A stretch of 39,161 nt of DNA from the IMG/VR virus record IMGVR_UViG_2706794670_000014; one strand, given 5' to 3'. Shown piece after piece: positions 1-35,801 of this stretch. How positions within the stretch are numbered: the stretch's first letter is position 1; each line of letters begins with the position of its first letter. The DNA is from a virus. Taxonomy: Duplodnaviria; Heunggongvirae; Uroviricota; Caudoviricetes. The translations under genes and the position numbers were made by a program. Below the pieces are notes generated by a model. The model was not told the origin of the DNA. It saw only the letters and a list, made by a program, of their open reading frames with translations, and did not search any database.

Positions 1-459
1 TTATTCAGTCGGCAGTGCTACGCGCCAGGGGAGCAGTTCGCCGACCCGGTTTATCGGCCAGTCGGCTATGACGTCAAGGACATAGCGGAGGTAGCTTTCT
101 GGCTCCACTCCGTTCAGTTTGCACGTCCCGATCAGGCTGTACAGCAGCGCTCCCCGCTCTCCTCCATGATCCGAACCGAAGAACAGGTAGTTTTTGCGGC
201 CCAGACTGACCATCCGCAACGCATTTTCAGCGATGTTATTGTCCGCCTCAGCCCAGCCATCATCTGCATAGTACGTCAGCGCCGGCCACTGGTTCAGGGC
301 ATATGCGAACGCTTTCGCCAGTTCTGAGTGTCGCGACAGGGTTTTCATCTTTTCACGCAGCCAGCTTTCCAGGGATTTCAGCAGCGGTTTCGTTTTCAAC
401 TGACGTTCGGCAAGGCGCTGTTTCAGCAGGAAGATGTCGTCAGAAGAGATGTCGTTCAT
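1..459 (-). mobile_element. IS66-family transposase (TnpC-like) gene, 3' fragment only, N-terminally truncated
   Basis: The 152-aa translation ends in motifs typical of IS66 transposase C-termini (LNQWPAL, DNNIAENALR, LGRKNYLF, NRVGELLPW). The in-frame sequence upstream of 460 loses the resemblance and hits a stop at 520-522. Confidence 0.7.
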
Positions 460-677: not shown

Positions 678-1415
678 TCATTCACTCTCTTTCAAACCAG
701 TTTTAACTGTTTGTGGTTTTGGGTAAGGCTGGACTTTGAATAGCTTTGTGTTAAGGCGTTTTCTGGCTCTCTTGTCCAGAAACCGGATGTAACGAAACTG
801 ACGGAATTTATGAACACTGGCTCTGTCGATATTAGCCCGCAGATGTTCACCTCGCTGTCCTCCTCGTTTGATTGCATTCTTGCAAATCTCGTGATACCAC
901 TCGCCATCAAGTTCATAGAATGTTGTTTCATGACTGCCTACATAATCAAAATTGCTTGCCTGGTACACGACACCAAGACAGCCACAACGCTCATCTGCAA
1001 ACGACTGAACCCACTGCACCTGCGGATAAAGTTGTCTGATTAGTTTGAGCGCGTAACTGATTGCCCTTGATTCGGAGTTTCTCGGCATACAGTCATGCAG
1101 CCATAACCGGTTAAGCTCCATATATTCGCGGTTCTGCGTGCCAGTTACGACGCGTGCACCATTGTTTGGATTAAGGGCATAACCCCATTGCATTACGCCA
1201 ACCAGCTCCCGTTCTGAAAATATGCCCAGATGAAGGTAGGAATTATTTACGAAACGATGGCTGTAATGTTTATTGACGACGACCAGCCGGGCCAGCCAGC
1301 AACTTATTGTCTCAACCCGTAACTCACGGGAGCCATAACCGACGATATTGTCGTTATAGTGAATAAGTTCAGGCGTGCTGATGATACGGGATGTAACTTG
1401 CTTTCTGTTCCCCAC
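678..1415 (-). CDS. mom: Mom-like DNA modification protein, assigned by position directly downstream of and overlapping com; start codon uncertain
   Basis: Long ORF 678..1610 in a different frame from com. Com's stop at 1369-1371 lies inside it, as in Mu where com overlaps the mom start. A GTG at 1415 preceded by AAGGAAA would give about 245 aa, close to the size I recall for Mu Mom. Confidence 0.55.
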
Positions 1416-1569
1416 GACAGGATTTCCTTGTGTATGTGGGGTGCTCTGTGGCGCTCTGAGATGTGATTTGATTGAGGGTTTTACAGCGCGGACATTTAAC
1501 TTCCAGATAACTGAAGCTGGCTCGTGCCAGTAGCTTGTTACAATGTCGGCACCGTATGTTTCGATACAT
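1369..1569 (-). CDS. com: Com-like zinc-finger translational activator of mom
   Basis: The translation from the ATG at 1569 contains [10 protein letters not shown]...EVKCPRCK, matching the Cys4 zinc-finger pattern of Mu Com. AGGAGG lies upstream. Confidence 0.75.
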
Positions 1570-1610
1570 GGCCGCATAACCTCCTGCTTTGTTGTTGATA
1601 TCTTTATCAC

Positions 1611-1705
1611 TCAATCGATCGACAAAAACGATCGATTTGATTTATTTAATTGATACAACAAATAACACGAAATGTCATTAGCGAAAATTTATGAGTTTGA
1701 TCACT
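1611..1705. promoter_or_regulatory. Putative Dam-methylation-sensitive control region upstream of com-mom (cluster of GATC sites in AT-rich DNA)
   Basis: GATC at 1617-1620, 1630-1633 and 1699-1702 within about 130 bp upstream of com. The Mu mom promoter is known to be controlled through clustered GATC sites. Confidence 0.4.
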
Positions 1706-1825
1706 AATTTTAAACGGTGCTGTAACGCATAAGTGCTGAATGATTGTACATTTGAATACCGCAAAGCAAACAAATCAACTAATTTATAGAAGTCAATTGG
1801 TTAATTGCCAGCGTAAGAGGCTGCT

Positions 1826-2119
1826 ATGGACAATCATGTAACGACGAGAAATCGAAAAATGATTGAAAATGCGGAAATCTATAATGATTATTTTTCCGAT
1901 TATTCAGATGCCTGCAAATACAGTTCGAGTGCGGGAGAGTTCATATGCTTCAACTTTTTTATTAAATCTTATGTTTTTCCTCCACAGCAAGAAGATGGAG
2001 GTGTGCCACCTCCTGAAATCACTTTGCACCGTATAGCCTCCGTCTCAATGATGGAGCAACAGGCTAATGAGCTGTATAGCATTCTGGGAACGATTCTACA
2101 AAAGCGTGAATCGGACTAA
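1826..2119 (+). CDS. Hypothetical 97-aa protein in an AT-rich region, oriented opposite to the lytic genes
   Basis: ATG at 1826 with AAGAGG six nt upstream. No similarity recognised. It diverges from com across an AT-rich spacer. Confidence 0.45.
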   Translation: MDNHVTTRNRKMIENAEIYNDYFSDYSDACKYSSSAGEFICFNFFIKSYVFPPQQEDGGVPPPEITLHRIASVSMMEQQANELYSILGTILQKRESD

Positions 2120-2286
2120 TGATACCGGTTCATTTGCCTGCCCGGATGGGGAAGCAGGATTGACTGCTCCATAAGCAGCTATATTTCTGAATACGAAATA
2201 CTATCCAGCGATTACATATGGCTGGATAGCGGCAAAGATGTTTTCATTAGTGTCAAACCGGCAGAGGACACCACCGGTTTGTATTG

Positions 2287-2541
2287 TTACATCATGGTAC
2301 TGTCAGTTCCGGGCTGAGCCGGGTCTGGTTGCTCTGGCTGCGCGTCGGTTTTCGGCTCATTATCAGCATCACTGGCCGCAACTGCTGGCCCAATAAGTTT
2401 TGCCAGCACTTCATCAACGTAAGTGTCGATTTGTGCCTCAAAATCCTTGCGGACCTGCGCTTTCAGCAACTTATTTACTTCACCGGAATACAGTGCCTGT
2501 TTTACCAGGTCTTCAGTGACGGTGCCTTTAATTTCTGGCAT
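2287..2541 (-). CDS. Hypothetical 84-aa protein with an acidic, Pro-rich C-terminus
   Basis: ATG at 2541 preceded by AAGGAGG at ideal spacing. Lies downstream of the esterase-like gene. Confidence 0.55.
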   Translation of the reverse strand: MPEIKGTVTEDLVKQALYSGEVNKLLKAQVRKDFEAQIDTYVDEVLAKLIGPAVAASDADNEPKTDAQPEQPDPAQPGTDSTMM

Positions 2542-2576
2542 GTATATCCTCCTTATGCGGGAATAAAGCCCTGCAA

Positions 2577-2759
2577 TCAGGGCTGGGTCGGGTCTTTTGG
2601 GAGCGGAGTTACCTGCGCTGTTTTACTGAGTTTTTCAGCTGCTGCGTCCTCAATTTTGCGGCGAACATAATTTCTGATGGCCTTATAACCACCACTCACC
2701 AGATATAACGCACATACTGCCGTGCAGAAATACAATAAAATAAGCTGTAAAAATGTCAT
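2577..2759 (-). CDS. Hypothetical 60-aa small membrane protein (one N-terminal transmembrane helix)
   Basis: ATG at 2759 preceded by GGGAGGG. Hydrophobic stretch FLQLILLYFCTAVCALYLV followed by a basic tail. The ORF track begins it at an upstream TTG. Confidence 0.5.
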   Translation of the reverse strand: MTFLQLILLYFCTAVCALYLVSGGYKAIRNYVRRKIEDAAAEKLSKTAQVTPLPKDPTQP

Positions 2760-2855
2760 TATCCCTCCCAATTATTGACATGGTGTTGACACCGGTAATA
2801 TCTGTTAGGTAAAAAGGTGCACTGCATTTTTTGCTTTGGATATAACGATCTTTTT

Positions 2856-2897
2856 GCCGCCGGTTTCTTGTTTTCCCTTACCGGCGGCATTTTTTTA
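2856..2897 (+). terminator. Rho-independent terminator-like hairpin with T-run on the plus strand
   Basis: GCCGCCGGT (2856-2864) / ACCGGCGGC (2880-2888) with a 15-nt loop, followed by ATTTTTTTA. The T-run is on the plus strand only. Confidence 0.55.
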
Positions 2898-2903
2898 TCC
2901 TGC

Positions 2904-4958
2904 TTACGCGTTATTCACTTCCACCACGATACTGTCAATCAGTACCGGGTAAGTCGCATTTTTAGTGATATCGGTCACGCGCAACTTGTCTGCCGTAAAC
3001 GTGCCGACCGGAGACTGCGACAGCATGAATGGTGTCCCGTCCTTACCATCAATGACCGGCGTCACCTCAATACTGTTGTTACCGGCAAAACGGAAGCCCA
3101 GCGTATGCCATTCGTTATTAAATGCGCCGAATGACCCCAGCTTCGTGTTCTGCGCCGTGTTTCCTTTGTGATACATCACGTTAAGGTCTGTGGCATCGCT
3201 CTGTACGTAGAACGATGCCAGCAGGTTATGACCGGCATTTCCTTCCAGAGTAACCCCTTGCGGCAGGGCAGAAACCGGCCAGTACAGCGCCAGTGCGTAC
3301 TGATTAGCCGTAAGCGCGCCATCGAGTTTAAAACGACAACTGACAAGACCACCTTTACCCAGCAGGTCCGCACCATTACCAGCATCATGCTCAAGGTACC
3401 AGGGGGCTCTTCCTGTTTCCTTGGTCAGTTTCATTGCCTTACCCCCGCTGGCTCCGGCATCATCCACGATTTGAGCCTTGCCACCTCCGGCAGCCCAACC
3501 CTGTGGTGTCAACCGTCCTTCAGACTCAGATGCCCGGTAAGCAAATAGCGTACTCATCGTCGTGGTGTCTGCGGGTGGCGTGGACGGTTTTGATGGTGTA
3601 TCAGGTGACGGCTTCTCATCCGGTGGTGTCACGGTCTGCCCACGCATCAGTTCAGCCGTGCGCCCTGCATGGAGCATAATAGCTGAGGCCAGACGGTCTG
3701 AAATGACGCCCCTGCGTGCCCATGAGCTGAAATGGCTGTCACGCTGTGTCGAAACAAAACTGCCCTGGGTTCGGGATGCTGCACCGTAATACCCGACAGC
3801 CACAATATCCGGGTCTTCCGCCGGAGCATTCGTTGGCGTGCTCTGTCCATTCTCATCCGTCAGGAACGGTACAAAGAAAATTTTCTGTGCTTCCTTGCCT
3901 TTGTAGCCACCGTATACTGCCTCATATTTATCGGTGCCAGCGTTTTTCCAGTAATACGTGGTATCACCGCAAATCCACGGCACCGTGGTGGCATTTCCAC
4001 TCACGCACTGCGCAGCAAGCGGAGCCAGGTCAGTTCTGAACTGCTGAACCATGGCCGTGAATAAACTATTATGCTGCTGGCTTCCTGAGGCAAGGTCTGC
4101 CTCTCCCTGCATCCAGACCACAGCCAGAAGTTTGTTTTTCGGGTTTTTCGCCAGCGCGACTTTGGTGCGGCTTACCAGGTCCTGATACAGAGGTTTACCG
4201 GCCCCCCAGCGTGAAGAATCAGCGGAAGCACCGCTGGCCTCACTGAATGAGCCGTCGGCTCCAGTGGTGAATGCTGACCCGCCACGACAACAGGGCACCA
4301 GAAGTATCCCGGCATTCTGTGGGATATAGGGAAGCAGTTTTTTGGCAATATGCAACCCCTGACCGACAGTCCCGTACTGGCCTTTTGCCAGATCAGCTTT
4401 CGGGTGGTTTATCCCGCTCATATCCTGAACATCATGCAGGCAGTGGTCTGCCGGAATGATGTCGTTGTATGTACACGACGTACCGTTGGGCGTTACCGTA
4501 CTGCGGCGTGCCAGTTGCTTAATGCGTGGGTCCGGGCGGTCAAACGAATCCGGTAACGGCAGCCCCTCGCCGTAGGCCATGCCATTTGACTGACCCGCGA
4601 GAATGACAACAAAGTAATATTCCGGCTCTGAACTGCTGCCATTCGTGCTACCGGAAGGCCCGGCGTTATCCGGTGCATTCCAGTCGGAGGGCGTGAGCGT
4701 TCCGGCCACGTCAGATGTGATTGGAATGATGCCAGTCACGCCTGAACTGGTGATTTCTGCACTGGGATTACCGGATACCGGCATTACCCATAATGGCTCT
4801 TTCGTGCTGAAGCGGATCACGCAGTCTGCGAAGGTGATCCCCCCTTTATTACCCGAAGGGCGGAAAGGGCTTTCAATAAATGCCACCGTGCCACCGGCAA
4901 CCTTGACTGAAAACTCTCCGGGCATGGCGGAGAGCATTTTCCACTTGGAGTCTGACAT
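2904..4958 (-). CDS. 684-aa protein with a sialate O-acetylesterase (SASA / SGNH hydrolase) domain, resembling prophage NanS-p-type esterases; likely cargo
   Basis: Conserved blocks VVILAGQSNGMAYGEG and VVWMQGEADLA match the catalytic-serine and second signature blocks of the SASA family. Long N- and C-terminal extensions. Sits between gin and com-mom, where Mu has no gene. Confidence 0.65.
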   Translation of the reverse strand: MSDSKWKMLSAMPGEFSVKVAGGTVAFIESPFRPSGNKGGITFADCVIRFSTKEPLWVMPVSGNPSAEITSSGVTGIIPITSDVAGTLTPSDWNAPDNAGPSGSTNGSSSEPEYYFVVILAGQSNGMAYGEGLPLPDSFDRPDPRIKQLARRSTVTPNGTSCTYNDIIPADHCLHDVQDMSGINHPKADLAKGQYGTVGQGLHIAKKLLPYIPQNAGILLVPCCRGGSAFTTGADGSFSEASGASADSSRWGAGKPLYQDLVSRTKVALAKNPKNKLLAVVWMQGEADLASGSQQHNSLFTAMVQQFRTDLAPLAAQCVSGNATTVPWICGDTTYYWKNAGTDKYEAVYGGYKGKEAQKIFFVPFLTDENGQSTPTNAPAEDPDIVAVGYYGAASRTQGSFVSTQRDSHFSSWARRGVISDRLASAIMLHAGRTAELMRGQTVTPPDEKPSPDTPSKPSTPPADTTTMSTLFAYRASESEGRLTPQGWAAGGGKAQIVDDAGASGGKAMKLTKETGRAPWYLEHDAGNGADLLGKGGLVSCRFKLDGALTANQYALALYWPVSALPQGVTLEGNAGHNLLASFYVQSDATDLNVMYHKGNTAQNTKLGSFGAFNNEWHTLGFRFAGNNSIEVTPVIDGKDGTPFMLSQSPVGTFTADKLRVTDITKNATYPVLIDSIVVEVNNA

Positions 4959-5032: not shown

Positions 5033-5063
5033 TCAAAAAAGCGTCACGGTACTTTTGGTGACG
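5033..5063 (-). terminator. Rho-independent terminator at the 3' end of gin
   Basis: On the minus strand: stem CGTCAC / GTGACG with a 10-nt loop, followed by CTTTTTTG. Confidence 0.55.
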
Positions 5064-5616
5064 GAGCTGGTGAGGCAGGAAAATAACGATAAAGGGTGGA
5101 AAGGCCAATATCAAATATCAGTGCGATTTGTTTACGGGACTCGCCATTAGCCAGCAAACGGGCGATTTGCTCCCGCTCTTTCTCTGTCAGTTTCTGAGGT
5201 CTGCCGCCATGACGCCCCTGAGCACGGGCAGCAGCAAGACCCGCGCGTGTACGTTCAATAATGAGTTCCCGCTCCATTTCCGCCAGCGCGCCCATTATAT
5301 GGAAAAAGAAACGTCCCATGGGAGTGGATGTATCAATATTGTCCGTAATGCTGCGGAAGTTAACGCCGCGTTGCCGGAGTTCTTCTGTTAAAAGGACAAG
5401 GTGCTGCATACTGCGTCCAAGGCGATCCAGTTTCCAGACCAGCAGGGTATCCCCTGGCCGGAGTCGCTTTAATGCGCGTTTAAGTCCGGGACGCTCCCTT
5501 GTCTTACCGCTTATTCTGTCTTCGAAAAACAGCTCACATCCTGCACATTCCAGCGCATTTCTTTGTAGCGCCGTATTCTGGTCATTTGTTGACACCCTGA
5601 TATACCCAATCAGCAT
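5044..5616 (-). CDS. gin: Serine DNA invertase of the Gin/Hin/Pin family
   Basis: N-terminus MLIGYIRVSTNDQ with the catalytic serine context, resolvase-like core and a C-terminal HTH. Adjacent to the tail-fibre invertible segment. Confidence 0.9.
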   Translation of the reverse strand: MLIGYIRVSTNDQNTALQRNALECAGCELFFEDRISGKTRERPGLKRALKRLRPGDTLLVWKLDRLGRSMQHLVLLTEELRQRGVNFRSITDNIDTSTPMGRFFFHIMGALAEMERELIIERTRAGLAAARAQGRHGGRPQKLTEKEREQIARLLANGESRKQIALIFDIGLSTLYRYFPASPAPSPKVP

Positions 5617-6659: not shown

Positions 6660-7535
6660 TTATATACTTGCAGCCGTCACCCATGCTCCATTTAACAGAT
6701 ACTGCAACGGCCGGTAATACACGCCGCCGACGTTATCTGCCGTATTCTTACCGACATCCTGTACTTTAATTCCGGTAAGAACATTGCCGCCCCCCAGATT
6801 CAGATCCCAGCTTTCCCATGTTCCGGGCATATGTGCGGTCACCGACCCCAGTCTTATGGCGGTTACTGTTCCTGATGAGATAGTGNNNNNNNNNNNNNNN
6901 NNNNNNNNNNNNNNNNNNNNNNNNNNNNNNNNNNNNNNNNNNNNNNNNNNNNNNNNNNNNNNNNNNNNNNNNNNNNNNNNNNNNNNNNNNNNNNNNNNNN
7001 NNNNNNNNNNNNNNNNNNNNNNNNNNNNNNNNNNNNNNNNNNNNNNNNNNNNNNNNNNNNNNNNNNNNNNNNNNNNNNNNNNNNNNNNNNNNNNNNNNNN
7101 NNNNNNNNNNNNNNNNNNNNNNNNNNNNNNNNNNNCGGCGAGATTCTGATCCTTCGCCAGGGCATTAACGTCAGCGGGACCAAGACTGTTTTTTGTGGCA
7201 AGCGTCCCCAGACCAAGATAACCACGGGCCAGACGCTGGGCCTCCGCACCGGCATCAGCAATTTCTTTCAGGTTATTTTTCCGGGAAAAGGCATTCGCAG
7301 CGATAATGGCTTTAATGGACAGCGTAAGCTGGTTTAACTGCGCCTTATCCGGCTGAATACTGGCTTCAGCCAGAATATTCAGCAGTTCGGCCTGGAGAAT
7401 ATTCAGCCAGTCCTGACCAATCCAGCTGATACCTTTTTGTCCGTCACCTTCGGTAAACCAGGTGGTGGTATTACTCTGCGCCGGTGCCAGCGCAGGCATA
7501 TTCGCCACGCCGGAATTATTATCAACATGAAACAT
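6660..7535 (-). CDS. Tail fibre protein (Mu S-like, constant plus currently joined variable part); middle masked by N
   Basis: Position after the baseplate genes. C-terminal segment resembles fibre receptor-binding tips. N-run 6886-7135 lies inside the gene. Confidence 0.65.
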   Translation of the reverse strand: MFHVDNNSGVANMPALAPAQSNTTTWFTEGDGQKGISWIGQDWLNILQAELLNILAEASIQPDKAQLNQLTLSIKAIIAANAFSRKNNLKEIADAGAEAQRLARGYLGLGTLATKNSLGPADVNALAKDQNLAXXXXXXXXXXXXXXXXXXXXXXXXXXXXXXXXXXXXXXXXXXXXXXXXXXXXXXXXXXXXXXXXXXXXXXXXXXXXXXXXXXXXTISSGTVTAIRLGSVTAHMPGTWESWDLNLGGGNVLTGIKVQDVGKNTADNVGGVYYRPLQYLLNGAWVTAASI

Positions 7536-8095: not shown

Positions 8096-9172
8096 GTGAT
8101 TTCTCCTACCGTCAGCAGCTCACTGTCTCCCGCCTGAACTGACGTCAGCGGACTGCGCACTTCAAAATCCTCCAGATTTTTCACCCCTGCCACCGCCCGC
8201 CAGAAAGACGACGGCAGAACCAGACCGCCGGGCCGGGATTCGTTATACAACAGGTCGGTCAGCGCCTGTTTTACGGCCGCCTGATTCTCCGGTGTTTTCG
8301 GGATGATCCTGATGCTGAAGGGCACCGGCTTATTGGTCAGTTTAAACACGGTCACCGTCGGCCCCAGAGGCTGTCCGACAGGCTGGCCGGTCGCCGGATC
8401 ATCATGACTGCGGATATAATCCGCCACCCGCTGAACATCACCGTCACCGGGGAAAATATCCGGGTTATTATCCTGAACAAACGTTACCCCCACGCTGCCC
8501 GCCTGCGGCCATTCCGGGCGGCACCATGCCCGCGTCACGCCCGGCACTTCACGCGCCCAGCGTTCAAANNNNNNNNNNNNNNNNNNNNNNNNNNNNNNNN
8601 NNNNNNNNNNNNNNNNNNNNNNNNNNNNNNNNNNNNNNNNNNNNNNNNNNNNNNNNNNNNNNNNNNNNNNNNNNNNNNNNNNNNNNNNNNNNNNNNNNNN
8701 NNNNNNNNNNNNNNNNNNNNNNNNNNNNNNNNNNNNNNNNNNNNNNNNNNNNNNNNNNNNNNNNNNNNNNNNNNNNNNNNNNNNNNNNNNNNNNNNNNNN
8801 NNNNNNNNNNNNNNNNNNGGTGATACGGTAAACCACGCCATCACTTCGCTGGAGAAGCACACCTTCCTTGATCCCCGCATCCGTGGTCAGCATCAGCTGA
8901 ACCGGCCCGTCCCCCCGAGAGGCAGGCTTACGCATGACGCCCCAGAATGCACAGTGTTTCAGCAGTTCGGCTTCATCGGCTTCGGTCGGGATGATCTGAC
9001 GCGCAATCCAGGCCAGATGCTCATGCTCCTGAGCAGATAACCCTGCCTGAGCGTAAGCAATGGCATTCAGGGTGGTTTCATTCACACCCGGCTGCGAGCC
9101 GGGCAGGCGCTGGCTGATATCCTGCTGTGTCTGCGTGATTAACTGTGCCAGCGGTAAAGGCTGATAAGGCAT
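8086..9172 (-). CDS. Baseplate J-like protein (Mu gp47-like); middle masked by N
   Basis: The N- and C-terminal ORF pieces flank the N-run 8569-8818. Both resemble Baseplate_J family proteins. Confidence 0.6.
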
Positions 9173-9609
9173 TACTCCCCCTTAAGATCAGCATAAAAAA
9201 TCATGGGCCTCACTGAACCATCAGGCAGGGTTATGCGCACCGAAAGCGCCAGCCGCGCGTGTCCCACACGTTCTGCATGACAGACCACGGATGACGCCAC
9301 GCCATCCTGACTGAGCCAGCCCAGCGCCTCATCCGCGTAAGCACGGGCACGGCTTATCACCGAGGCCAGCGTTTTTTCCCGGCTGAGAAGCCACAGACGG
9401 GAGCCAATGGGGCGCGGGCGAAAACTGTCTCCCCACCATCCCCGGCGGTCGCGCGTACCGTCAGGGATTTCATCCGATGCCAGCGCCCGGCGGTCAGTAA
9501 ACAGCGAAATCAGAACGGCCGTCAGCAGACTGTCATCCGTCAGCAAGTCGGCACCGTTCAGTTGCAGCGAACCGCACCCCTGATCCCATACAATTGCAAT
9601 ATCAGCCAT
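9172..9609 (-). CDS. Baseplate protein (Mu gp46-like)
   Basis: Internal start MADIAIVWDQ... overlaps the end of the upstream gene. Position in the baseplate cluster. Confidence 0.5.
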   Translation of the reverse strand: MADIAIVWDQGCGSLQLNGADLLTDDSLLTAVLISLFTDRRALASDEIPDGTRDRRGWWGDSFRPRPIGSRLWLLSREKTLASVISRARAYADEALGWLSQDGVASSVVCHAERVGHARLALSVRITLPDGSVRPMIFYADLKGE

Positions 9610-10216
9610 TCTCCGGCGCTCCTGTCTTACTGCCTTTGCCGTTATCCTGATGCACATGGCCGGAATAGGTGATCCCGGCAATAACGGCATCAGACATCGT
9701 GAACAGCCCGTCTGATTTACCTGTACCATCAAGCACGAAATTACCCTTAACATGCAGGTTTTTATCCACCGTCACATTGCCCGTAAAGGTGGCCTCCGGC
9801 GTATCCACCCGCATCCCCTCATCGGCGTAAATCTCCAGCATTTTGCATGTCACAATAATGCGACCATCCTTTGTTAACCGTATCCGGTGCCCCTCATGGT
9901 GATACACCCCCGTATCTCCGGCTGTGAGTCCGGTCGGGCGGCTGCGCCGGTCTTCCACCACAAGCACCACAGTCTGATCCCGCTGTCCGCCCAGACAGGC
10001 AAAAAAGGTTTCCGCACCCGGCAGGGGAACGCTGATCTGCCCGTACTGCTGGGGACGCTCCACATCATCAAAGGTTTCGCCGTCCATGCCGGTGAGCTGC
10101 ACATTCTGCATTTTCAGTTCGTCATGTGTGCCGGTCAGAACGCCCCGGCCAAACAACAGGCGAATACCGCGCGTTACCGGGGCAATCAGGCGGCTGAACA
10201 CTTCATCATTCATCAA
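9602..10216 (-). CDS. Baseplate assembly protein V-like / spike (Mu gp45-like)
   Basis: About 200 aa with a Gly-rich C-terminal region, in the syntenic position. Confidence 0.6.
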   Translation of the reverse strand: MMNDEVFSRLIAPVTRGIRLLFGRGVLTGTHDELKMQNVQLTGMDGETFDDVERPQQYGQISVPLPGAETFFACLGGQRDQTVVLVVEDRRSRPTGLTAGDTGVYHHEGHRIRLTKDGRIIVTCKMLEIYADEGMRVDTPEATFTGNVTVDKNLHVKGNFVLDGTGKSDGLFTMSDAVIAGITYSGHVHQDNGKGSKTGAPENG

Positions 10217-11330
10217 AGCTGATCCCCTGTTTTTTCATCTGCTGGCGAATAAAGGCATCAACATCGTCACCGGAACCACCCCGGCCCTTACTGTCCGGCT
10301 CTGCCGGAACGATAAAGCCGTCACGCGGTGCCAGTACCAGCCGGGTGACTTCCCCGTTATGTTCATCAAGTAAAAACTCCACCTGACAGACCAGCAGTTC
10401 AGTCTGTTCTATACCGAAACGCAGGGCTGAAACACCGGTCAGCAGATTGACATCCCATAACCGGCCATCATCCCGGAACCAGCCACGCACGGTGGCAGAA
10501 AACCGTTCTGAACGGGCAATCGCACGGCGCATTTCACGCAGGGCACGCTGCCGTGCACCGGTGGTGTCTGTCTGTTGATCGGCGAGGATGATTTTCGACC
10601 GGTAGCGGCCGATCTGCTCATCACTGATGACGCCCACAGGTGCTGCCAGACGGGCGGCGGATTCGCTGTCTCCCCGTTTGCCACCACCGCGCCCGTGTCC
10701 CCGGACACGGTATTCGCTGTATCGTCCTCGCCAGTCCGTGTTGTAATCGGCATCAAGCAGGTTATCTCCCAGCACCAGTCTGTCCGTCTGCTGGCTTCCT
10801 GCCTGGGTGAACACCAGATCGCCGTCAGCATTACTGGTCACCAGCACCCCGCGATGCCGGGCAGCACGGGTCAGCGCATCCGCCACGGTTTCTGAGTTTT
10901 CCAGCGTAAAAGAGCTGAAGGGGCGTGCAGCCGTGTCGTCGTTAACCTGCCAGCGCACGGCTATCCCGAAGGGCGCACATAAATCTGCGGCAATCTGTGC
11001 CAGCGTCCGGTTGCGCCACTGGCTGCCGGGATGGATGGCGGCACAGTCCACCAGGTCGCCGGTTTTATCCCGACCGCTGATGCTGATCTGATGACGGGTT
11101 GCACTGATCCGCTGACTGACCTGATCCAGCCAGCCACTGATGACCGTCTGCCCGTTAATTCTGAGCGTCAGGGACTGACCGGTTCGCAGGGCTGAGGGGA
11201 TGCGCTCACCGGGCAGCATCAGCCCCAGTTCAAACGACCCGGCCAGATGCTCCAGCGAGCGACGGACGCTGACCGTCAGCCAGCCGGAAAAAATACTGCC
11301 ACCGATATACAGTTCAATCCTGCTGCTCAC
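10206..11330 (-). CDS. Baseplate hub, late control gene D-like (Mu gp44 / P-like)
   Basis: 374 aa in the syntenic position after the DNA circularisation protein. Confidence 0.65.
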   Translation of the reverse strand: MSSRIELYIGGSIFSGWLTVSVRRSLEHLAGSFELGLMLPGERIPSALRTGQSLTLRINGQTVISGWLDQVSQRISATRHQISISGRDKTGDLVDCAAIHPGSQWRNRTLAQIAADLCAPFGIAVRWQVNDDTAARPFSSFTLENSETVADALTRAARHRGVLVTSNADGDLVFTQAGSQQTDRLVLGDNLLDADYNTDWRGRYSEYRVRGHGRGGGKRGDSESAARLAAPVGVISDEQIGRYRSKIILADQQTDTTGARQRALREMRRAIARSERFSATVRGWFRDDGRLWDVNLLTGVSALRFGIEQTELLVCQVEFLLDEHNGEVTRLVLAPRDGFIVPAEPDSKGRGGSGDDVDAFIRQQMKKQGISFDE

Positions 11331-12752: not shown

Positions 12753-14714
12753 TCAGGGGCAACAAGCTCCACCCGNNNNNNNNNNNNNNNNNNNNNNNNN
12801 NNNNNNNNNNNNNNNNNNNNNNNNNNNNNNNNNNNNNNNNNNNNNNNNNNNNNNNNNNNNNNNNNNNNNNNNNNNNNNNNNNNNNNNNNNNNNNNNNNNN
12901 NNNNNNNNNNNNNNNNNNNNNNNNNNNNNNNNNNNNNNNNNNNNNNNNNNNNNNNNNNNNNNNNNNNNNNNNNNNNNNNNNNNNNNNNNNNNNNNNNNNN
13001 NNNNNNNNNNNNNNNNNNNNNNNNNACCGGCCCACAGGGCACCACCACCCAGCCGACCGGCACCACGGAACAGCCCGGCAAAACGCCCCAGCCCCATGCG
13101 GTTTCCGGCCGCCGTTAGCAGACCACCGGCACGGCTCATCATACGACCGAAGAAGCCCTGTTTACCGGCACTCTCCGCCAGTTGCTCACCGGCAGTCACG
13201 ACGGTCGTGACACCCCGTCCACGTCCGGGGCCGCGTTTTTTACGGCCGCGCACGGTTTTGCCGTCACCGCTGACCACCACATCCCCGCCACCTGAGGCCA
13301 GGCCACCCGCAGGCCAATTGGTGACCAGCACGGGCTGAACGGCAGCCGGATTTACCCCGGTAAGGAAATTCAGGAACCGGCCAGCGCGTCCGGGCTGCGT
13401 TCCCGGTACAGTGGTCTGCGGTTTGCGGAAGGGCGACGTCAGCACGGAGGTCATCGCCATGCCATAGCGTAAGGGGGTTGCGCCGAGACGTAATGCCCCC
13501 GTCCCCGCAAACCTGAGCACCTTCAGCGCACGGGAGGCGAGATACATATACATCAGGTACTTTGCGGCGGTCTGCGCACCCTGACCAATGCGATCCAGCG
13601 CATCGCCATAACCGGCGTCGCGCAGTGCCTGAAGCGTTTCCCTGACTTTCTGAATGACCCGGTAAAAGCCGGTCGCAGCGTCTCTGGCATACTCAAATCC
13701 CTGATTCAGGGCTGAGGCCGTCTGTGTGGCCAGCTTATCCTGTAAGCCGCTTTTCTGTGCCGCATCAGCATAATCCAGAAAGCCTTTCAGGCTCTTTTTC
13801 AGGCTGTCAAACGGTCCCTTTGCCATCACCTCGCGGGCAAATCCGTCCCAGACATCGCCCATCATGGACGTCATTCCCGTCCAGGAATTCATGGCGTTTT
13901 TCTGGGCACCTTTTGCCTGTTCGGCCATCACCTGAAATAACAGGCGAATGCTGTCCGGTCCCAGTTTTCCTTTCTCGCCTTTCTCACGGATGATCTTCTG
14001 GTTTACACCCAGCTTATCGGCCAGCAACTGGTAAACGTTAATCCCGTATCCGGTCAGAATATTGGCGTCCGCTGCCTGGATACTCTGGCGGGCAAACATC
14101 TGTTTGAGTTGCAGGGACGCACCCTGTGCATCTGACAGTGACCAGCCGTGATAGCCGCCCTGATCCTGAAGCATGGTAATAAAGCGACGGGCTTCCCTGT
14201 CACTCATACCGAACCCGCGACTGGAGGCGTATTCCTGCATAACCCCCGCCAGCCCCCAGGTGGTGTCTTTGGCGTTCTGTACCGCCCAGGCTTTCACTGC
14301 TTCCGTTTTTGCCGTATCGCCATGATTAATGGCGTTGAGACGCAGAATATAGTTCTCCATCTCTGCGGCCGGGCGGATAAAGGCTTTATTAAACCCGTAG
14401 ACCGCAGCCCCTCCCGCCAGCATCCCGTAAAGGTTGCTTATCCGCCCGATGGTGCCGGTAATGCTGCCCTGAAGGCGGTCAAAATCTGACGTCACCGTGC
14501 GGATACTGCCACGAACACCGGCAAGCGTTCGCTGCATACGGGAGCCGACAAGTTCTGTCTCCTGACCGGCACGACGTGCTGCATTTCCAAGACCACCCAG
14601 CCCCGTCCTGCCGGAACGGGAGAATGCCCCCAGCTCCTGTGACCACTGGCGGGATTTGGCAGAAATATTGCCGAGTAAATCGACAATCAGGGAGGCTTTC
14701 AGGTTTTTTGCCAT
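12753..14714 (-). CDS. Tail tape measure protein; C-terminal part masked by N
   Basis: Long Gly/Ala-rich ORF between the tail tube and baseplate genes. ATG at 14714. Confidence 0.7.
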   Translation of the reverse strand: MAKNLKASLIVDLLGNISAKSRQWSQELGAFSRSGRTGLGGLGNAARRAGQETELVGSRMQRTLAGVRGSIRTVTSDFDRLQGSITGTIGRISNLYGMLAGGAAVYGFNKAFIRPAAEMENYILRLNAINHGDTAKTEAVKAWAVQNAKDTTWGLAGVMQEYASSRGFGMSDREARRFITMLQDQGGYHGWSLSDAQGASLQLKQMFARQSIQAADANILTGYGINVYQLLADKLGVNQKIIREKGEKGKLGPDSIRLLFQVMAEQAKGAQKNAMNSWTGMTSMMGDVWDGFAREVMAKGPFDSLKKSLKGFLDYADAAQKSGLQDKLATQTASALNQGFEYARDAATGFYRVIQKVRETLQALRDAGYGDALDRIGQGAQTAAKYLMYMYLASRALKVLRFAGTGALRLGATPLRYGMAMTSVLTSPFRKPQTTVPGTQPGRAGRFLNFLTGVNPAAVQPVLVTNWPAGGLASGGGDVVVSGDGKTVRGRKKRGPGRGRGVTTVVTAGEQLAESAGKQGFFGRMMSRAGGLLTAAGNRMGLGRFAGLFRGAGRLGGGALWAGXXXXXXXXXXXXXXXXXXXXXXXXXXXXXXXXXXXXXXXXXXXXXXXXXXXXXXXXXXXXXXXXXXXXXXXXXXXXXXXXXXXXGGACCP

Positions 14715-17128: not shown

Positions 17129-17417
17129 NNNNNNNNNNNNNNNNNNNNNNNNNNNNNNNNNNNNNNNNNNNNNNNNNNNNNNNNNNNNNNNNNNNNNNNN
17201 NNNNNNNNNNNNNNNNNNNNNNNNNNNNNNNNNNNNNNNNNNNNNNNNNNNNNNNNNNNNNNNNNNNNNNNNNNNNNNNNNNNNNNNNNNNNNNNNNNNN
17301 NNNNNNNNNNNNNNNNNNNNNNNNNNNNNNNNNNNNNNNNNNNNNNNNNNNNNNNNNNNNNNNNNNNNNNNNNNNNNNCAGGCATCCCGGCGCAGGTTTA
17401 ATAAAAATGGTTGTCAT
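17129..17417 (-). CDS. 5' end of a gene with a strong RBS (either the sheath N-terminus or a separate small gp38-like gene); body masked
   Basis: ATG at 17417 with GAGGAA upstream. Its frame differs from the sheath ORF across the N-run, so continuity cannot be decided. Confidence 0.3.
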
Positions 17418-17984: not shown

Positions 17985-18682
17985 ATAAAGCCCTTCTGGT
18001 TGCGCCCGAACACCGCCGCATCAGACTGCACCTGCGGTAAATCCCCGGATTCAGGGGCCGCACCGTCTGTATCCACGCCGACCGGCACGTTACCGTTCAT
18101 GACATCTTTCAGCCAGGCCAGCGCCTCACGGTAACGGTCACGCGCCTGATCGGATGCCCGCTGATCGCACAGGTAATAAAAGGCAATCGTGCAGCAATGC
18201 TGAACAAGGACCGCCGGAACCACCGCCAGCGGCAGCGTGTAACGGGAAGACAGATAGCTGTCGATAAGGGCAGACGCGTCCGTCAGTGCCCGGTTCAGCT
18301 TGCGCGTGTCCGGTTCATCCGAACGGGGCACGGCCAGTAATGGCCTGAGCAAATCCTCGCGGTAACGTGCCCGCATATCGGTTTCGGTGGNNNNNNNNNN
18401 NNNNNNNNNNNNNNNNNNNNNNNNNNNNNNNNNNNNNNNNNNNNNNNNNNNNNNNNNNNNNNNNNNNNNNNNNNNNNNNNNNNNNNNNNNNNNNNNNNNN
18501 NNNNNNNNNNNNNNNNNNNNNNNNNNNNNNNNNNNNNNNNNNNNNNNNNNNNNNNNNNNNNNNNNNNNNNNNNNNNNNNNNNNNNNNNNNNNNNNNNNNN
18601 NNNNNNNNNNNNNNNNNNNNNNNNNNNNNNNNNNNNNNNNNNNNNCAGGAACCCCGCACGACGAAAATGCGTACGACTGCAA
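17981..18682 (-). CDS. Mu gp36-like protein (DUF1320-type); N-terminus masked
   Basis: The C-terminal 130 aa are visible. N-run 18391-18645 covers the start. Confidence 0.45.
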   Translation of the reverse strand: MQSYAFSSCGVPXXXXXXXXXXXXXXXXXXXXXXXXXXXXXXXXXXXXXXXXXXXXXXXXXXXXXXXXXXXXXXXXXXXXXXXXXXXXXXXXXXXXXXTETDMRARYREDLLRPLLAVPRSDEPDTRKLNRALTDASALIDSYLSSRYTLPLAVVPAVLVQHCCTIAFYYLCDQRASDQARDRYREALAWLKDVMNGNVPVGVDTDGAAPESGDLPQVQSDAAVFGRNQKGFI

Positions 18683-18814: not shown

Positions 18815-19762
18815 TTACAGATAATCCGCGACAACCAGCTCCAGCTTGCCCTTCATCTCGTTAGAGACTGTGGCGTTACCGTCTGCGAACAGCTCGCGCT
18901 CCAGCAGCTGCACCGCCTGTTTTTCCAGCGAGGTGGGGACAACAATATGGGTGGGTTTGATGCCGAGTTTGCGGCCACCGTCAGCCTTAAAGTCACGCAT
19001 GGCTGACCAGCCGTGCCACAGCGCATCCAGCGTCAGCGGTGACTGCATCATGTAGGCCATCTGCCAGAAGCCGTAGCCCACATTGCGACGGGCGGAAGCA
19101 CCGAACACAAACTCGTTATCAGTAAACGCACGGCCTTCATCGACTTTTGTCTGGGCAACCAGTTCGGCTTTGCGGCGATCCTGATAAATCAGCGGTTTTA
19201 CCGCGCGGGAGCAGTCAAGCAGATACCAGGCCGGGCCGCTGTAATCCGCCTGTGCACCGACAGAGCCGGTTTTTGCCACAAACATATTGCTGACCATCTG
19301 TGCATCACCGGAGCCATCCACTTTGGGGTAAACAGGGTGTTCGGTATCAAAGAAGTTCTGGCCGTCATAGCAGGCCGCATTCAGACCATCACGCAGTGCA
19401 GCAAAGACCAGTTCATCCGGTTGTGCCGCAGCGGCACGACCCATTTCCTGGAATAACGGGGAGTAGATGCCGAGATTGTCGTCTTCAAAGTCATCGCGGC
19501 TAATGGCAACGGTGCCTTCAAAGGTTTTGTTCACGATGGCGTAGCCATAGGCTTTCATCTTCTCGATGACGCGGGAGCCGATCCACTCACGGAACTGCGG
19601 GAACTGCCCCAGCCAGCCGTAGGTGTTGGATTTCGAGGTGGACGGCACGGTCATCGCAATTTTCTGGTACTGCGACGGAGCCATGGACATCCCGGCCTGA
19701 AAATCAGAACGGTAGCCCGTCATCAGGGCGGTGATCATCGCCGGTGTAATCGGGGTAGGCAT
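18815..19762 (-). CDS. Major capsid protein (Mu T-like)
   Basis: 315 aa. Its start overlaps the stop of the protease/scaffold gene (TAATG). Syntenic with Mu T. Confidence 0.8.
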   Translation of the reverse strand: MPTPITPAMITALMTGYRSDFQAGMSMAPSQYQKIAMTVPSTSKSNTYGWLGQFPQFREWIGSRVIEKMKAYGYAIVNKTFEGTVAISRDDFEDDNLGIYSPLFQEMGRAAAAQPDELVFAALRDGLNAACYDGQNFFDTEHPVYPKVDGSGDAQMVSNMFVAKTGSVGAQADYSGPAWYLLDCSRAVKPLIYQDRRKAELVAQTKVDEGRAFTDNEFVFGASARRNVGYGFWQMAYMMQSPLTLDALWHGWSAMRDFKADGGRKLGIKPTHIVVPTSLEKQAVQLLERELFADGNATVSNEMKGKLELVVADYL

Positions 19763-21667: not shown

Positions 21668-22999
21668 TTAATCAATTTGTCCTTCCAGCACCTCAAGCAT
21701 TCCGCCCCGGATATCCGATTTCAGCTTATCCATATTGATAACCCGGTAAGCATTCACAATCACATCCAGTTTGTCGGGCTGACGTTTCAGACTGTACGGT
21801 GCATTAACGGCAATCTGCACACTGCCATCCTGATTTTCCACGATATACATCAGATTGTTGTGCCGTTTGTCCCACAGTACCGCTTTTGGCCTTGCCAGCA
21901 TTGCCGGTAAGCGCCCGAAGTCCTCCGGCGTCAGAGCGATGCCGTCATTCTGATGTTTCACACTGTCCGCATGGAGCACATTTTTACCGCTCATCGCCAG
22001 CAGGCGGGCCGGTGGCGTTCCCGTCCGGCTTTCCACTGCCTGCGCAATGCTTTCAGTCATAAAGCCCAGCGTGCGGATATCGTTACCACCTCGCCGGGTC
22101 TGCATGATGTTTTTTGCCCAGATGCGGAACGCCAGCTGCCGCTCCGGGCTGTTGTTCATCTCCTGAACCACCATTTCCCGTAACGCCGGGCTTTTCACCT
22201 CGATCAGTTTGCGGATCAGCGCCTGGTCTGTGCCGAACGCTGCCGAGCCGGGGTTATATGACCAGCCCACATCCGGTGTCATGGTTCTGGCGCCATCTGA
22301 ATATGTGGTCACCGGCATTTCTCTGACTTCTCCGGTCTGTTTATCCACGCCAGCCTCAACATTGCGGGTGGAGAGATGATCCTCACCGGATGAAACGGAT
22401 AACCCCATTGCATCCAGACGGGCCTGAGACAATGGCCGCACACGGCAGCGGCAGTTCCAGCCATTGGGCGNNNNNNNNNNNNNNNNNNNNNNNNNNNNNN
22501 NNNNNNNNNNNNNNNNNNNNNNNNNNNNNNNNNNNNNNNNNNNNNNNNNNNNNNNNNNNNNNNNNNNNNNNNNNNNNNNNNNNNNNNNNNNNNNNNNNNN
22601 NNNNNNNNNNNNNNNNNNNNNNNNNNNNNNNNNNNNNNNNNNNNNNNNNNNNNNNNNNNNNNNNNNNNNNNNNNNNNNNNNNNNNNNNNNNNNNNNNNNN
22701 NNNNNNNNNNNNNNNNNNNNCTGCTTTCCCCACCATCCCAGCTTTTGCAGGCGTGGCGTCAGTGTGCGGATAAATTCTTTCTGTGAAATCCCCTCATCAA
22801 TGGCCCGCTGCACTTCGGCCTGTAATGTGGTTACCACATCCAGCCGTGCCGTTTTTGCTGCCGTGAATGAGCGGGCATGAACATCCGCGTCTGTTTCGAA
22901 CCAGTTCCAGCTGATATGCGCCCCTTTGGCGCGGAAGTATGCCACCGTCTCTTTTGAGGGAAGCGTGGCGGCATAACCTAAATCAATCCCCTGAGCCAT
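21668..22999 (-). CDS. Head morphogenesis protein (Mu F / SPP1 gp7 family); middle masked
   Basis: NGWNCRCR motif typical of this family. Position after the portal gene. Confidence 0.75.
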   Translation of the reverse strand: MAQGIDLGYAATLPSKETVAYFRAKGAHISWNWFETDADVHARSFTAAKTARLDVVTTLQAEVQRAIDEGISQKEFIRTLTPRLQKLGWWGKQXXXXXXXXXXXXXXXXXXXXXXXXXXXXXXXXXXXXXXXXXXXXXXXXXXXXXXXXXXXXXXXXXXXXXXXXXXXXXXXXXXXXPNGWNCRCRVRPLSQARLDAMGLSVSSGEDHLSTRNVEAGVDKQTGEVREMPVTTYSDGARTMTPDVGWSYNPGSAAFGTDQALIRKLIEVKSPALREMVVQEMNNSPERQLAFRIWAKNIMQTRRGGNDIRTLGFMTESIAQAVESRTGTPPARLLAMSGKNVLHADSVKHQNDGIALTPEDFGRLPAMLARPKAVLWDKRHNNLMYIVENQDGSVQIAVNAPYSLKRQPDKLDVIVNAYRVINMDKLKSDIRGGMLEVLEGQID

Positions 23000-24556
23000 C
23001 CAGCATCCCCTTCATTTCCGCAGCAAACATGGCATCACTGAGCAGCGTCATCAGGCGGGAATCATCCATTTCACGGTAAAGGGCAGGCAGGTCTGCCAGT
23101 GCCTCCGCCAGCCCCCGCGTTCTGATGACATCAATGACCGGCTCCAGCACCGGATCGATGGCCTCCTGTAAGCGGCGGGCAGGCACCGCGTCCCCCATGT
23201 CGTCCAGTTCATCACGCGGCGTGTTTTTCGCTTCCGGCAGTCGGGCTGAAAGCGCCGTCTGTTCTGTCTTTTCCTGTTTTTCCGGTAGCGTTTCCCTGTC
23301 AGGCATGGCCGGTTCATTACTGCTCTGACGGACACGGAATATGGCTTCACCGGGCGTGGGCTGTGGAATACCGGTCTGATCCCGTACCCAGGGATCAGGA
23401 ATATCCATCCCCGCACTGAGTTGCATCACCGCACTGGCTATTTTGGTGATATCCCCCGGTTCTTTGGTCTGGAAACAGATACGCGGCAGGCGACGGATAT
23501 CAATGGCGTGGGCGGTGTTCAGGGCATACAGCGGATACACCAGATCGCGGTTCAGGGTTGCAGCCAGCTGGCGTAAATCAGAATCCCTGATTTCCCGGCG
23601 CACCTCGTTATGCACCTCACCCAGCGAGCGCGCGCCTTTGTCTCCGGCTTCTGTGGTCAGCGTGCCGCCGANNNNNNNNNNNNNNNNNNNNNNNNNNNNN
23701 NNNNNNNNNNNNNNNNNNNNNNNNNNNNNNNNNNNNNNNNNNNNNNNNNNNNNNNNNNNNNNNNNNNNNNNNNNNNNNNNNNNNNNNNNNNNNNNNNNNN
23801 NNNNNNNNNNNNNNNNNNNNNNNNNNNNNNNNNNNNNNNNNNNNNNNNNNNNNNNNNNNNNNNNNNNNNNNNNNNNNNNNNNNNNNNNNNNNNNNNNNNN
23901 NNNNNNNNNNNNNNNNNNNNNGGCCAGATAAGCGTTCTGACAAGCCCCGTCGCACCACCGTAGCCGGTGCGTGAACGCGACTGATGCACTATCCAGCCAA
24001 AGGGCTGAAACGCCACCCCGGCATGGCTGCCGTCACGCAGCCGCAGTTCGCTCAAATCATCCGGGTTAAGGCAGAAATGCCCGCTGTCACGCCAGCGGAT
24101 GGCGCGGATGATGTGCATTTTACCGAGCATCCCGTGCTCAATTTCCATGCAGGAATAGCCCTTCAGGATGGCATCCGTGGCGTCAAACAGCATGGCATCA
24201 AACCAGTCTGCGGAATGCAGATATTCGTCGAGCATTTCCGCGTCCTTTTTCTCATTCGCGCTGGCGTTCGGTGGCGGCTCAATACTCCATGGCACCCCCT
24301 GAATGGCAAGACGTCGCTTGCCCAGCTCCGCAAAAAGGTGGGTGTCCTTTTCTTCAATATCAGCGGCCAGATCGGACTGGGCAATCAGATCGCCACGTTC
24401 AGCCCCGCGAAGGCACTGCGCCGCCCGGTTCGGGGTGATACCCGAAGCCGGATGTTCAATATAACGGCTGGCAATCTGCGGAATATCCAGCGCGGCACTC
24501 TGCATCTCCGGGTCAAAGGAGAAAGGTTTTCCGTCAGTATCAATGATGCGTCCCAC
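22983..24556 (-). CDS. Portal protein (Mu gp29-like); middle masked, frame across the mask not resolved
   Basis: N- and C-terminal portal-like pieces are both open into the N-run 23672-23921. Combined length of about 524 aa matches Mu portal size. Confidence 0.65.
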
Positions 24557-27875: not shown

Positions 27876-28433
27876 TTACTTCGTCTTTCCTGCCGGAACA
27901 GCAGTCGNNNNNNNNNNNNNNNNNNNNNNNNNNNNNNNNNNNNNNNNNNNNNNNNNNNNNNNNNNNNNNNNNNNNNNNNNNNNNNNNNNNNNNNNNNNNN
28001 NNNNNNNNNNNNNNNNNNNNNNNNNNNNNNNNNNNNNNNNNNNNNNNNNNNNNNNNNNNNNNNNNNNNNNNNNNNNNNNNNNNNNNNNNNNNNNNNNNNN
28101 NNNNNNNNNNNNNNNNNNNNNNNNNNNNNNNNNNNNNNNNNNNNNNNNNNNNNNNNNNNNNNNNNNNNNNNNNNNNNNNNGCACCGTTGCCAGTGACCGG
28201 CGGACAATGCTCTGCTGTTCCTCGCTGTGCTGCATGTTCTGCTGTTTTTCATTCGTGGCCGCCTTGCTGATTTGTGAAATGAGTTGCAGGGTGCGTTGCT
28301 GGTTTGCCAGCACCAGACGGGCTTCGTCCCGTTCACGCACAAGCACATGATTATTGTCCTCAAGGCGCTGCGTCTTCTGGTGCATTCCCCATACCACGGC
28401 AGCCAGCACGCTCATCACCCCCAGCGCCGCCAT
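27876..28433 (-). CDS. i-spanin-like protein (Rz-like); C-terminal part masked
   Basis: ATG at 28433 with GGAGG upstream. N-terminal transmembrane helix AALGVMSVLAAVVWG followed by a coiled-coil-like sequence, downstream of the endolysin. Confidence 0.45.
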   Translation of the reverse strand: MAALGVMSVLAAVVWGMHQKTQRLEDNNHVLVRERDEARLVLANQQRTLQLISQISKAATNEKQQNMQHSEEQQSIVRRSLATVXXXXXXXXXXXXXXXXXXXXXXXXXXXXXXXXXXXXXXXXXXXXXXXXXXXXXXXXXXXXXXXXXXXXXXXXXXXXXXXXXXXXXXXXXXXXTAVPAGKTK

Positions 28434-35719: not shown

Positions 35720-35801
35720 ATTATTCACCTCGCTTGAGACAGCATTCTCCGAGACTGAAACCTCAAATAACCTGAGTCACCCCTCGGGTTATTTTTTTAT
35801 T

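Follow-up and report, generated by a model that had tools for sequence, protein, structure and literature searches.

What is a sialate O-acetylesterase gene doing between the invertase gene gin and the com-mom operon of a Mu-like prophage, at a junction where phage Mu itself carries no gene? The question is raised by IMGVR_UViG_2706794670_000014, a stretch of 39,161 nucleotides that we refer to as the window, most of which is an Escherichia coli Mu-like prophage (~550-39100), co-linear with Sp18 of the O157:H7 strain Sakai. The gene lies at 2904..4958 on the minus strand. It is an open reading frame (ORF) with an ATG start and a stop codon inside these coordinates, encodes 684 residues, and is identified as a NanS-p-like sialate O-acetylesterase gene by Pfam and PDB matches. 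We consider that the locus is probably best explained as an intact NanS-p-type esterase gene under selection, part of a three-gene module fixed at the gin-com junction, in which the N-terminus of the enzyme has been swapped. The homology, the intact active-site residues, the architecture, the genomic context, the distribution and the purifying selection are directly supported.

Domain organization and active site of the esterase

An initial annotation of the window had described a 684-residue ORF with both signature blocks of the SASA/SGNH esterases, and the ORF call and the motif positions agree with that description: LAGQSNGMAYGEG spans residues 120–132 (window 4563-4601) and VVWMQGEADLA spans residues 280–290 (window 4089-4121). 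The identity proposed for the protein, a NanS-p-type SASA/SGNH sialate O-acetylesterase, was supported by Pfam, by matches to solved structures and by a homologue search. The SGNH type II (SASA) esterase domain comprises residues ~111–430 (3669..4628, minus strand). Here, residues 117–312 match Pfam SASA (PF03629; E 1.5e-13, 51.3 bits against a cut-off of 24.8), and residues 110–428 align with the solved structure of E. coli NanS/YjhS (3pt5; E 1.8e-117, ~70% identity). A Pro/Ser/Thr-rich linker (linker 2, residues ~431–468; 3555..3668, minus strand) leads to a C-terminal lectin-like jelly-roll domain (residues 469–684; 2907..3554, minus strand), of which residues 469–683 match the crystallised NanS-p C-terminal domain (6yp6; E 7e-98, ~75% identity) and residues 533–650 match Pfam DUF6645 (PF20350; E 7e-68). 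The domain assignments rest on sequence matches to solved structures because the full-length AlphaFold2 (AF2) model, computed from a 14-sequence alignment, had a predicted local distance difference test score (pLDDT) of 30 and was unusable.

Catalysis by NanS involves Ser19 and His301, with Gln18 in the oxyanion hole and no catalytic Asp (PMC9063846). In the 3pt5 alignment, Gln18, Ser19 and His301 correspond to Gln123, Ser124 and His409 of the window protein, encoded at window 4587-4592 (Gln123 and Ser124) and 3732-3734 (His409), and all three residues are unchanged throughout the 14-sequence homologue alignment. The block I nucleophile Ser in GQSN, the Gln oxyanion residue and the block V catalytic His are thereby all present. 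The initial annotation had envisaged a Ser/His/Asp set; the Ser and the His are in place, whereas an Asp is not expected in an SGNH type II enzyme of the NanS kind, which uses Ser and His with a Gln in the oxyanion hole. Outside the catalytic domain the resemblance to NanS ends, as NanS is a single-domain protein of ~326 residues (3PT5 chain, 337 residues) that belongs to the nan regulon, is not phage-borne, and has neither the N-terminal domain described below nor a lectin-like domain.

The combination of a central NanS-like esterase with a C-terminal lectin-like jelly-roll (DUF6645/6YP6) is shared with NanS-p of lambdoid and Shiga toxin (Stx) phages. Identity to NanS-p proteins that carry the domain DUF1737 reaches 92.8% in the esterase region and 95.4% in the lectin region. 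The 933W- and phi24B-type copies in Stx-phage records are ~65% identical to the window protein (tblastn), whereas other lambdoid NanS-p alleles reach 89–91% over residues ~108–684. No signal peptide or transmembrane segment was detected in the esterase (Kyte-Doolittle 15-residue maximum 1.08), which answers the question of a secretion signal left by the initial annotation. At least 13 complete E. coli genomes encode the 684-residue protein with 100% identity, under the annotation ‘DUF6645 domain-containing protein’, and the ratio of nonsynonymous to synonymous substitution rates (dN/dS) of its esterase domain, measured against two diverged alleles, is 0.07–0.08.

Exchange of the N-terminal domain

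Canonical NanS-p proteins begin with DUF1737 (PF08410), and this domain is absent from the window protein. The homologue search returned two architectures. Class B proteins, of ~647 residues, consist of DUF1737, SASA and DUF6645 and represent the canonical lambdoid NanS-p, while class A proteins, of 678–691 residues and including the window protein, have no PF08410 among their precomputed domains and consist of a different N-terminal domain (N-dom), the SASA esterase and the DUF6645 lectin-like domain. In the 14-sequence alignment the two classes are collinear from ~residue 105 on and unrelated upstream. N-dom (residues 1 to ~80; 4719..4958, minus strand) is a lineage-specific all-beta domain occupying the position of DUF1737 in canonical NanS-p. 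It is followed by a Ser/Gly/Pro-rich linker (linker 1, residues ~81–110; 4629..4718, minus strand) that is predicted to be disordered, with AF2 pLDDT values below 50 at residues 83–105. The alignment places the recombination breakpoint with lambdoid nanS-p within linker 1, and DNA homology begins at ~window 4597, near residue 120.

The AF2 core of N-dom (pLDDT 86–91) has six strands in an all-beta arrangement of ~75 residues, and this predicted fold is unlike the helix and three strands of DUF1737. Residues 1–115 gave no match in Pfam (E up to 10), the PDB or PHROGs, and the fold search with N-dom returned weak cupin-like matches at most and no known tail adaptor.

Conservation is distributed unevenly along the protein. 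Within class A, the N-terminal region (residues 12–95) is 98.6% identical (minimum 96.4%) and is unrelated to class B. The esterase and lectin-like domains are 85.7% and 86.2% identical within class A, and each is ~86% identical between class A and class B. For N-dom, dN/dS against the two diverged alleles is 0.01–0.05. Because N-dom is 98.6% identical while the body stands at ~86%, we conclude that the N-terminal domain is held constant and the enzyme body is exchanged with the lambdoid allele pool; the body (residues ~111–684) would thus recombine freely with the resident lambdoid nanS-p alleles of E. coli. The N-terminal module is the sole systematic difference from the lambdoid alleles. 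One class A allele, from the marmot strain E. coli STEC299 (locus 694-2826), encodes 710 rather than 684 residues, and its N-dom differs by 1 residue despite a synonymous divergence (dS) of ~0.4.

Relatives of the N-terminal domain beyond E. coli

When 1.84 billion representative proteins were searched exhaustively for N-dom, a single distant relative emerged, a Salmonella protein cut by a contig end, which has both N-dom and the start of the esterase in similar form and is encoded downstream of an invertase in another Mu-like prophage. A contig scan with this Salmonella N-dom-esterase fragment confirmed nothing further. Among IMG/VR contigs, one encodes a 784-residue N-dom-esterase-lectin protein directly after tail-fibre and tail-fibre-assembly genes and before com. 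In another, the protein is split into a 78-residue N-dom ORF (locus 1264-1500) and a 703-residue esterase-lectin ORF (1516-3627) in the same frame, with one stop codon and 15 nt between them. An isolated error would not account for the split, since the same protein of 77–78 residues recurs in several Salmonella assemblies.

A profile search extended this to a family of free-standing Salmonella proteins of 77–80 residues related to N-dom. Their genes always lie just after the cluster of tail-fibre, assembly and invertase genes of myovirus-type prophages, and what follows them is always variable: either an ILEI-domain protein with DUF1353, or a 332-residue unknown protein with a DUF4376 chaperone-like gene. 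Comparison of profiles with profiles gives only moderate support for the homology of these proteins to N-dom. The UniRef name of one free-standing cluster is ‘Host specificity protein’, an unverified database name. N-dom is particular to Mu-like and myovirus-type prophages, and would represent a small new domain family with free-standing Salmonella members, beside the variable glycan-binding genes that end tail-fibre clusters.

A three-gene module at the gin-com junction

Upstream of the esterase gene, at a distance of 85 nt from its ATG, lies a gin-type DNA invertase gene (5044..5616, minus strand; Pfam Resolvase and HTH_7). The downstream end of the extra segment, which measures ~3.4 kb between gin and com, is formed by the com-mom operon (678..1614, minus strand; Pfam Zn_ribbon_Com and Mom). 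By the RefSeq coding sequences of an identical locus, com is at 1369-1569 and mom at 678-1415, and the ORF at 678-1610 on the minus strand matches the Mom family with E 1.6e-77. Phage Mu has a 94-nt gap here, from the end of gin at 35673 to the start of com at 35768, and no gene within it; the corresponding gap in a Mu/D108-type prophage of strain WS1933D is 82 nt, again with no gene. Both comparisons bear out the initial annotation, which had placed the gene where Mu has none. The element is recognisable as Mu-like by its Mu-type transposase, annotated as ‘Mu transposase C-terminal domain-containing protein’, by gin, com, mom and a tail-fibre assembly gene, by its co-linearity with Sp18 and by varied insertion sites.

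The initial annotation had treated the esterase as a lone gene with a unit of its own. It is instead the first of a co-oriented trio, followed by a DUF1378 gene (2577..2759, minus strand; Pfam E 1e-31, with a RefSeq coding sequence in identical sequence) and a DUF826 gene (2287..2541, minus strand; Pfam E 6e-16). DUF1378 is a small protein with a single strong transmembrane segment (Kyte-Doolittle 19-residue maximum 2.27), and it accompanies the esterase always, in both phage types. Conceivably, DUF1378 helps to bring the esterase, which lacks a signal peptide, to the membrane or to release it.

The same companions are found in lambdoid prophages, whose late region runs in the order Q, tRNAs, SASA esterase, DUF1378, DUF826, holin and lysozyme. 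In Stx2a phages, nanS-p is separated from the holin gene S by DUF826 and DUF1378 genes (PMC10462455). DNA homology between the window and lambdoid phages, from its start in the esterase gene, runs on into DUF1378. Because the gene order is the same and the DNA homology extends into DUF1378, we regard the trio as common to Mu-like and lambdoid phages. The surroundings differ: lambdoid NanS-p genes lie between Q/stx and the lysis cassette, whereas the window gene is at the gin-com junction of a transposable Mu-like myovirus prophage, outside any lambdoid late region, with its DUF1378 and DUF826 companions kept nonetheless.

The layout in Sakai Sp18 is identical, with ECs_4992 (invertase), ECs_4993 (the esterase, 679 residues), ECs_4994 (DUF1378) and ECs_4995 (DUF826), followed by com and mom (ECs_4992 to ECs_4998 in all). 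ECs_4993 has the same architecture as the window protein, is annotated as ‘hypothetical protein’, and is the subject of no publication that we found. The two prophages belong to the same lineage, their MuA proteins being 95.7% identical, while the esterases are ~66% identical overall and 59–62% in N-dom. Between DUF826 and com, the window has an ORF at 1826-2119 on the plus strand (RefSeq coding sequence 1859-2119) with no Pfam or PHROG match, and the equivalent position in Sp18 holds ECs_4996, an unrelated gene of 154 codons. Because Sp18 has an unrelated gene there, this position appears to be a variable accessory slot.

Distribution among complete E. coli genomes

Among 5426 complete E. coli genomes, an Sp18-type Mu transposase was matched in 248 (any match), with ~234 records at 90% identity or more. 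The 5′ end of the esterase gene, encoding N-dom, was found in 205 genomes in its Sp18-type form and in 32 in the window-type form, so that the number of genomes with such a 5′ end approximates the size of the lineage. Because the gene is in essentially every Sp18-type Mu-like prophage, we interpret it as a fixed lineage feature and not as a sporadic moron, and the term ‘cargo’ used in the initial annotation does not fit this distribution.

The insertion sites of the prophage vary by strain (in bcsA, sorM and others), with several copies at times. Varied sites, multiple copies and plasmid copies are as expected for a transposable phage. The 166-kb plasmid of strain 8479 (NZ_CP074995.1) carries both an Sp18-type MuA and the esterase 5′ end, and thus an esterase-bearing Mu-like prophage; another plasmid, of 136 kb (NZ_CP012497.1), gave a partial Mu/D108-type MuA match only (80.7% identity). 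In E. coli S1-CAM-01-A (NZ_CP145714.1), a prophage copy in bcsA has an esterase trio 99.5% identical to that of the window and is without the gin invertase.

To our knowledge, NanS-p has been studied as a fitness- or virulence-associated factor of enterohaemorrhagic E. coli with the lambdoid-phage copies alone being counted. The Mu-like lineage, including Sakai Sp18, adds an apparently overlooked NanS-p allele in ~4% of complete E. coli genomes. We found no publication linking NanS-p or a sialate esterase with Mu-like phages, Sp18 or ECs4993, a mention in Rangel 2016, Saile 2016 or Feuerbaum 2018 being possible. Although this enzyme family is an established one, neither its Mu-like variant, in which the N-terminal module is exchanged, nor the fixation of that variant in a widespread lineage of prophages appears to have been described before.

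Transcription of the esterase gene

The gene had been proposed to form its own terminator-bounded transcription unit, a claim that the sequence does not support. Consensus scans found no sigma-70 promoter or terminator flanking the esterase on its own strand, and their overall counts were no better than those from shuffled sequences. The 85-nt gap between gin and the ATG contains no hairpin, and two co-oriented genes follow the esterase. A GC-rich hairpin (2856..2888, no strand assigned; GCCGCCGG, 17-nt loop, CCGGCGGC) lies 16 nt past the esterase stop codon, and it has a T-run on the plus side only: A residues follow it on the coding strand, and the T-run is on the opposite strand. The terminator scan left this hairpin uncalled on both strands. 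When the sequences upstream of the gene at four loci were aligned, no promoter stood out as convincingly conserved. The pattern TTATN6ATAA, taken as the Mu C-protein box, had one match, at chance level and in the wrong place, and was rejected as uninformative. Read-through from gin and a dedicated promoter are both possible.

Possible roles of the enzyme and of its N-terminal domain

From its homology, the gene product would be a 9-O-acetyl-sialic-acid esterase in which an SGNH type II catalytic domain is combined with a C-terminal lectin-like jelly-roll. By analogy with its relatives, it may strip the 9-O-acetyl group from Neu5,9Ac2 and from mucin sialoglycans, and this de-acetylation would make the sialoglycans usable by sialidases and the Nan pathway. 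Among NanS-p alleles, only those of EDL933 and O104:H4 have been shown to act on Neu5,9Ac2 and to remove O-acetyl groups from mucin (reviewed in PMC8065619). Having no signal peptide, the enzyme would reach its substrate at phage-induced lysis or on the particle.

The second of these routes has a precedent in the phage phi24B. Its NanS-p homologue gp84 is reported to be an abundant, capsid-decorating virion protein; hexamers of its DUF1737 (residues 1–54) bind at capsid hexon centres, and the protein undergoes proteolytic processing after release (bioRxiv 10.64898/2026.04.10.717836). Because DUF1737 binds phi24B hexons, the domain that is swapped here can be read as a capsid-specific tether of the enzyme. 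The initial annotation had considered the protein probably not part of the virion; this is unproven, given that the phi24B homologue sits on the capsid through DUF1737 and that a conserved lineage-specific domain takes the place of DUF1737 here. By the same analogy, N-dom may do for the Mu-like phage what DUF1737 does for phi24B, namely oligomerise the enzyme, attach it to the virion, or both, which we regard as a serious possibility that stops somewhat short of probable. A constrained N-terminal module specific to the phage type, joined to an exchanged enzyme body, would match the pattern of virion-attached fibres, spikes and decoration proteins, and hints at a single enzyme adapted to the particles of different phages. 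We offer more tentatively, as on balance unlikely, the broader proposal that N-dom is a new virion-attachment or adaptor module and that NanS-p bodies are payloads swapped among morphotype-specific anchors, DUF1737 on capsids of the phi24B type and N-dom on Mu-like virions. If it is true, these enzymes would serve the particle first of all, binding 9-O-acetylated sialoglycans in mucus and clearing them in the manner of viral haemagglutinin-esterases, and would not be primarily a means of lysogen nutrition. One enzyme body with two N-terminal modules in two unrelated virion architectures amounts to a natural experiment between these two roles.

In influenza C HEF and the haemagglutinin-esterases of betacoronaviruses and toroviruses, an SGNH sialate-O-acetylesterase is joined to a jelly-roll lectin domain, and these proteins bind and then destroy receptors containing 9-O-acetyl-sialic acid. 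Their resemblance to the window protein is a functional analogy, with no sequence relationship past the SGNH superfamily. These haemagglutinin-esterases are membrane-anchored envelope glycoproteins, whereas virion display of the Mu-like protein is unproven. The domain through which gp84 binds the capsid, DUF1737, is absent from the window protein.

Several observations weigh against the explanation that we prefer, a selected esterase module with a swapped and possibly virion-directed N-terminus. The position of the esterase gene, downstream of gin, is not within the Mu structural operons, and the promoter and terminator scans, the C-box search and the upstream alignment assign it no promoter or terminator. 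The existence of free-standing N-dom relatives of 77–80 residues means that N-dom need not be a covalent anchor, and no structural neighbour among the fold matches suggests an anchor role for it. The relationship of these free-standing proteins to N-dom itself rests on an hhalign probability of 77% (E 2e-5) together with the shared position. The genome counts are sums of separate searches whose lists were not intersected. Lastly, we found no publication with enzymatic, expression or virion-proteome results for the window protein or ECs_4993.

The alternative that survives best is that of pure lysogenic-conversion cargo, in which a soluble cytoplasmic esterase, freed only by lysis, unlocks 9-O-acetylated sialic acids for lysogens, with no role in the particle and with N-dom as a fusion leftover or an aid to folding or oligomerisation. 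Such a reading has a substantial claim, to which we give slightly less than even weight. Morons typically occupy such a place, at the extreme right end and beside accessory genes (here gin and com-mom) and a variable slot, and the gene is absent in Mu and in the Mu/D108-type prophage. Lysogens grow better on Neu5,9Ac2 when they carry NanS-p alleles (reviewed in PMC8065619), the esterase has no signal peptide, and the gap of 85 nt without a terminator after gin permits low-level read-through in lysogens. A leftover, however, would not surpass the rest of the protein in conservation, as N-dom does (98.6% identity, dN/dS 0.01–0.05) next to a mosaic catalytic body. It is also difficult to reconcile with an N-terminal module that tracks the phage type, DUF1737 in lambdoid and N-dom in Mu-like phages, with the fixation of the gene in essentially the whole Sp18-type lineage, and with the phi24B homologue being a structural protein.

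Esterase tailspikes such as gp63.1 of phage G7C act on surface polysaccharide during adsorption, and the window protein could by comparison be a receptor-modifying enzyme associated with the tail or baseplate, with N-dom docking on the baseplate or fibres and the esterase de-O-acetylating bacterial O-antigen, capsule or polysialic acid. Three lines of evidence point in this direction: the Salmonella and IMG/VR genes for N-dom or N-dom-esterase fusions that directly follow tail-fibre or assembly genes; the name ‘Host specificity protein’, which is unverified; and the comparison of the window prophage with Sp18, in which the gin-esterase region (~70% DNA identity; N-dom 59–62% amino acid identity) has diverged to an extent closer to the tail module (76% DNA identity) than to the head module (88–92%). 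We nevertheless judge it improbable. The catalytic and lectin domains are 85–95% identical to NanS-p enzymes with host sialic acid or mucin substrates, one and the same body occurs in podovirus, siphovirus and Mu-like prophages across hosts of many O-antigens, and neither a trimeric-fibre signature nor a fold match to known tail adaptors was found. A decaying, non-functional remnant, that is, a nanS-p fragment captured by illegitimate recombination, to which the uninformative RefSeq names (‘DUF6645 domain-containing protein’, ‘hypothetical protein’) and the degraded state of some prophage copies (JKHS016 has many pseudogenes) might point, is so improbable that we reject it, in view of a full-length frame of 684 residues identical in many genomes, invariant active-site residues, dN/dS of 0.01–0.08 and an architecture kept across E. 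coli and Salmonella.

Further features of the prophage

Just beyond the right end of the prophage (~550), window 1-459 on the minus strand holds a 3′ fragment of an IS66-family transposase gene (DDE_Tnp_IS66 and IS66_C); the prophage therefore appears to have inserted in or beside an IS66 element. The window also contains nine runs of ~250 N (6886-7135, 8569-8818, 12776-13025, 17129-17378, 18391-18645, 22471-22720, 23672-23921, 27908-28180 and 29107-29356), which hide parts of the structural genes of the prophage, including a piece of the invertible tail-fibre segment, and ORFs that cross them contain runs of X. The Mu-like major head protein is encoded at window 18815-19762. The inverted-repeat ends of the G segment were not found in the window, where this region is partly masked with N. 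Elsewhere, mom is replaced by a gene for a 350-residue protein downstream of com, in a Mu-like phage inside the Stx phage LC727881 (locus 9420-10472) and likewise in one IMG/VR Mu-like contig (locus 11785-12837); from its sequence, this protein reads as a putative DNA cytosine-5 methyltransferase.

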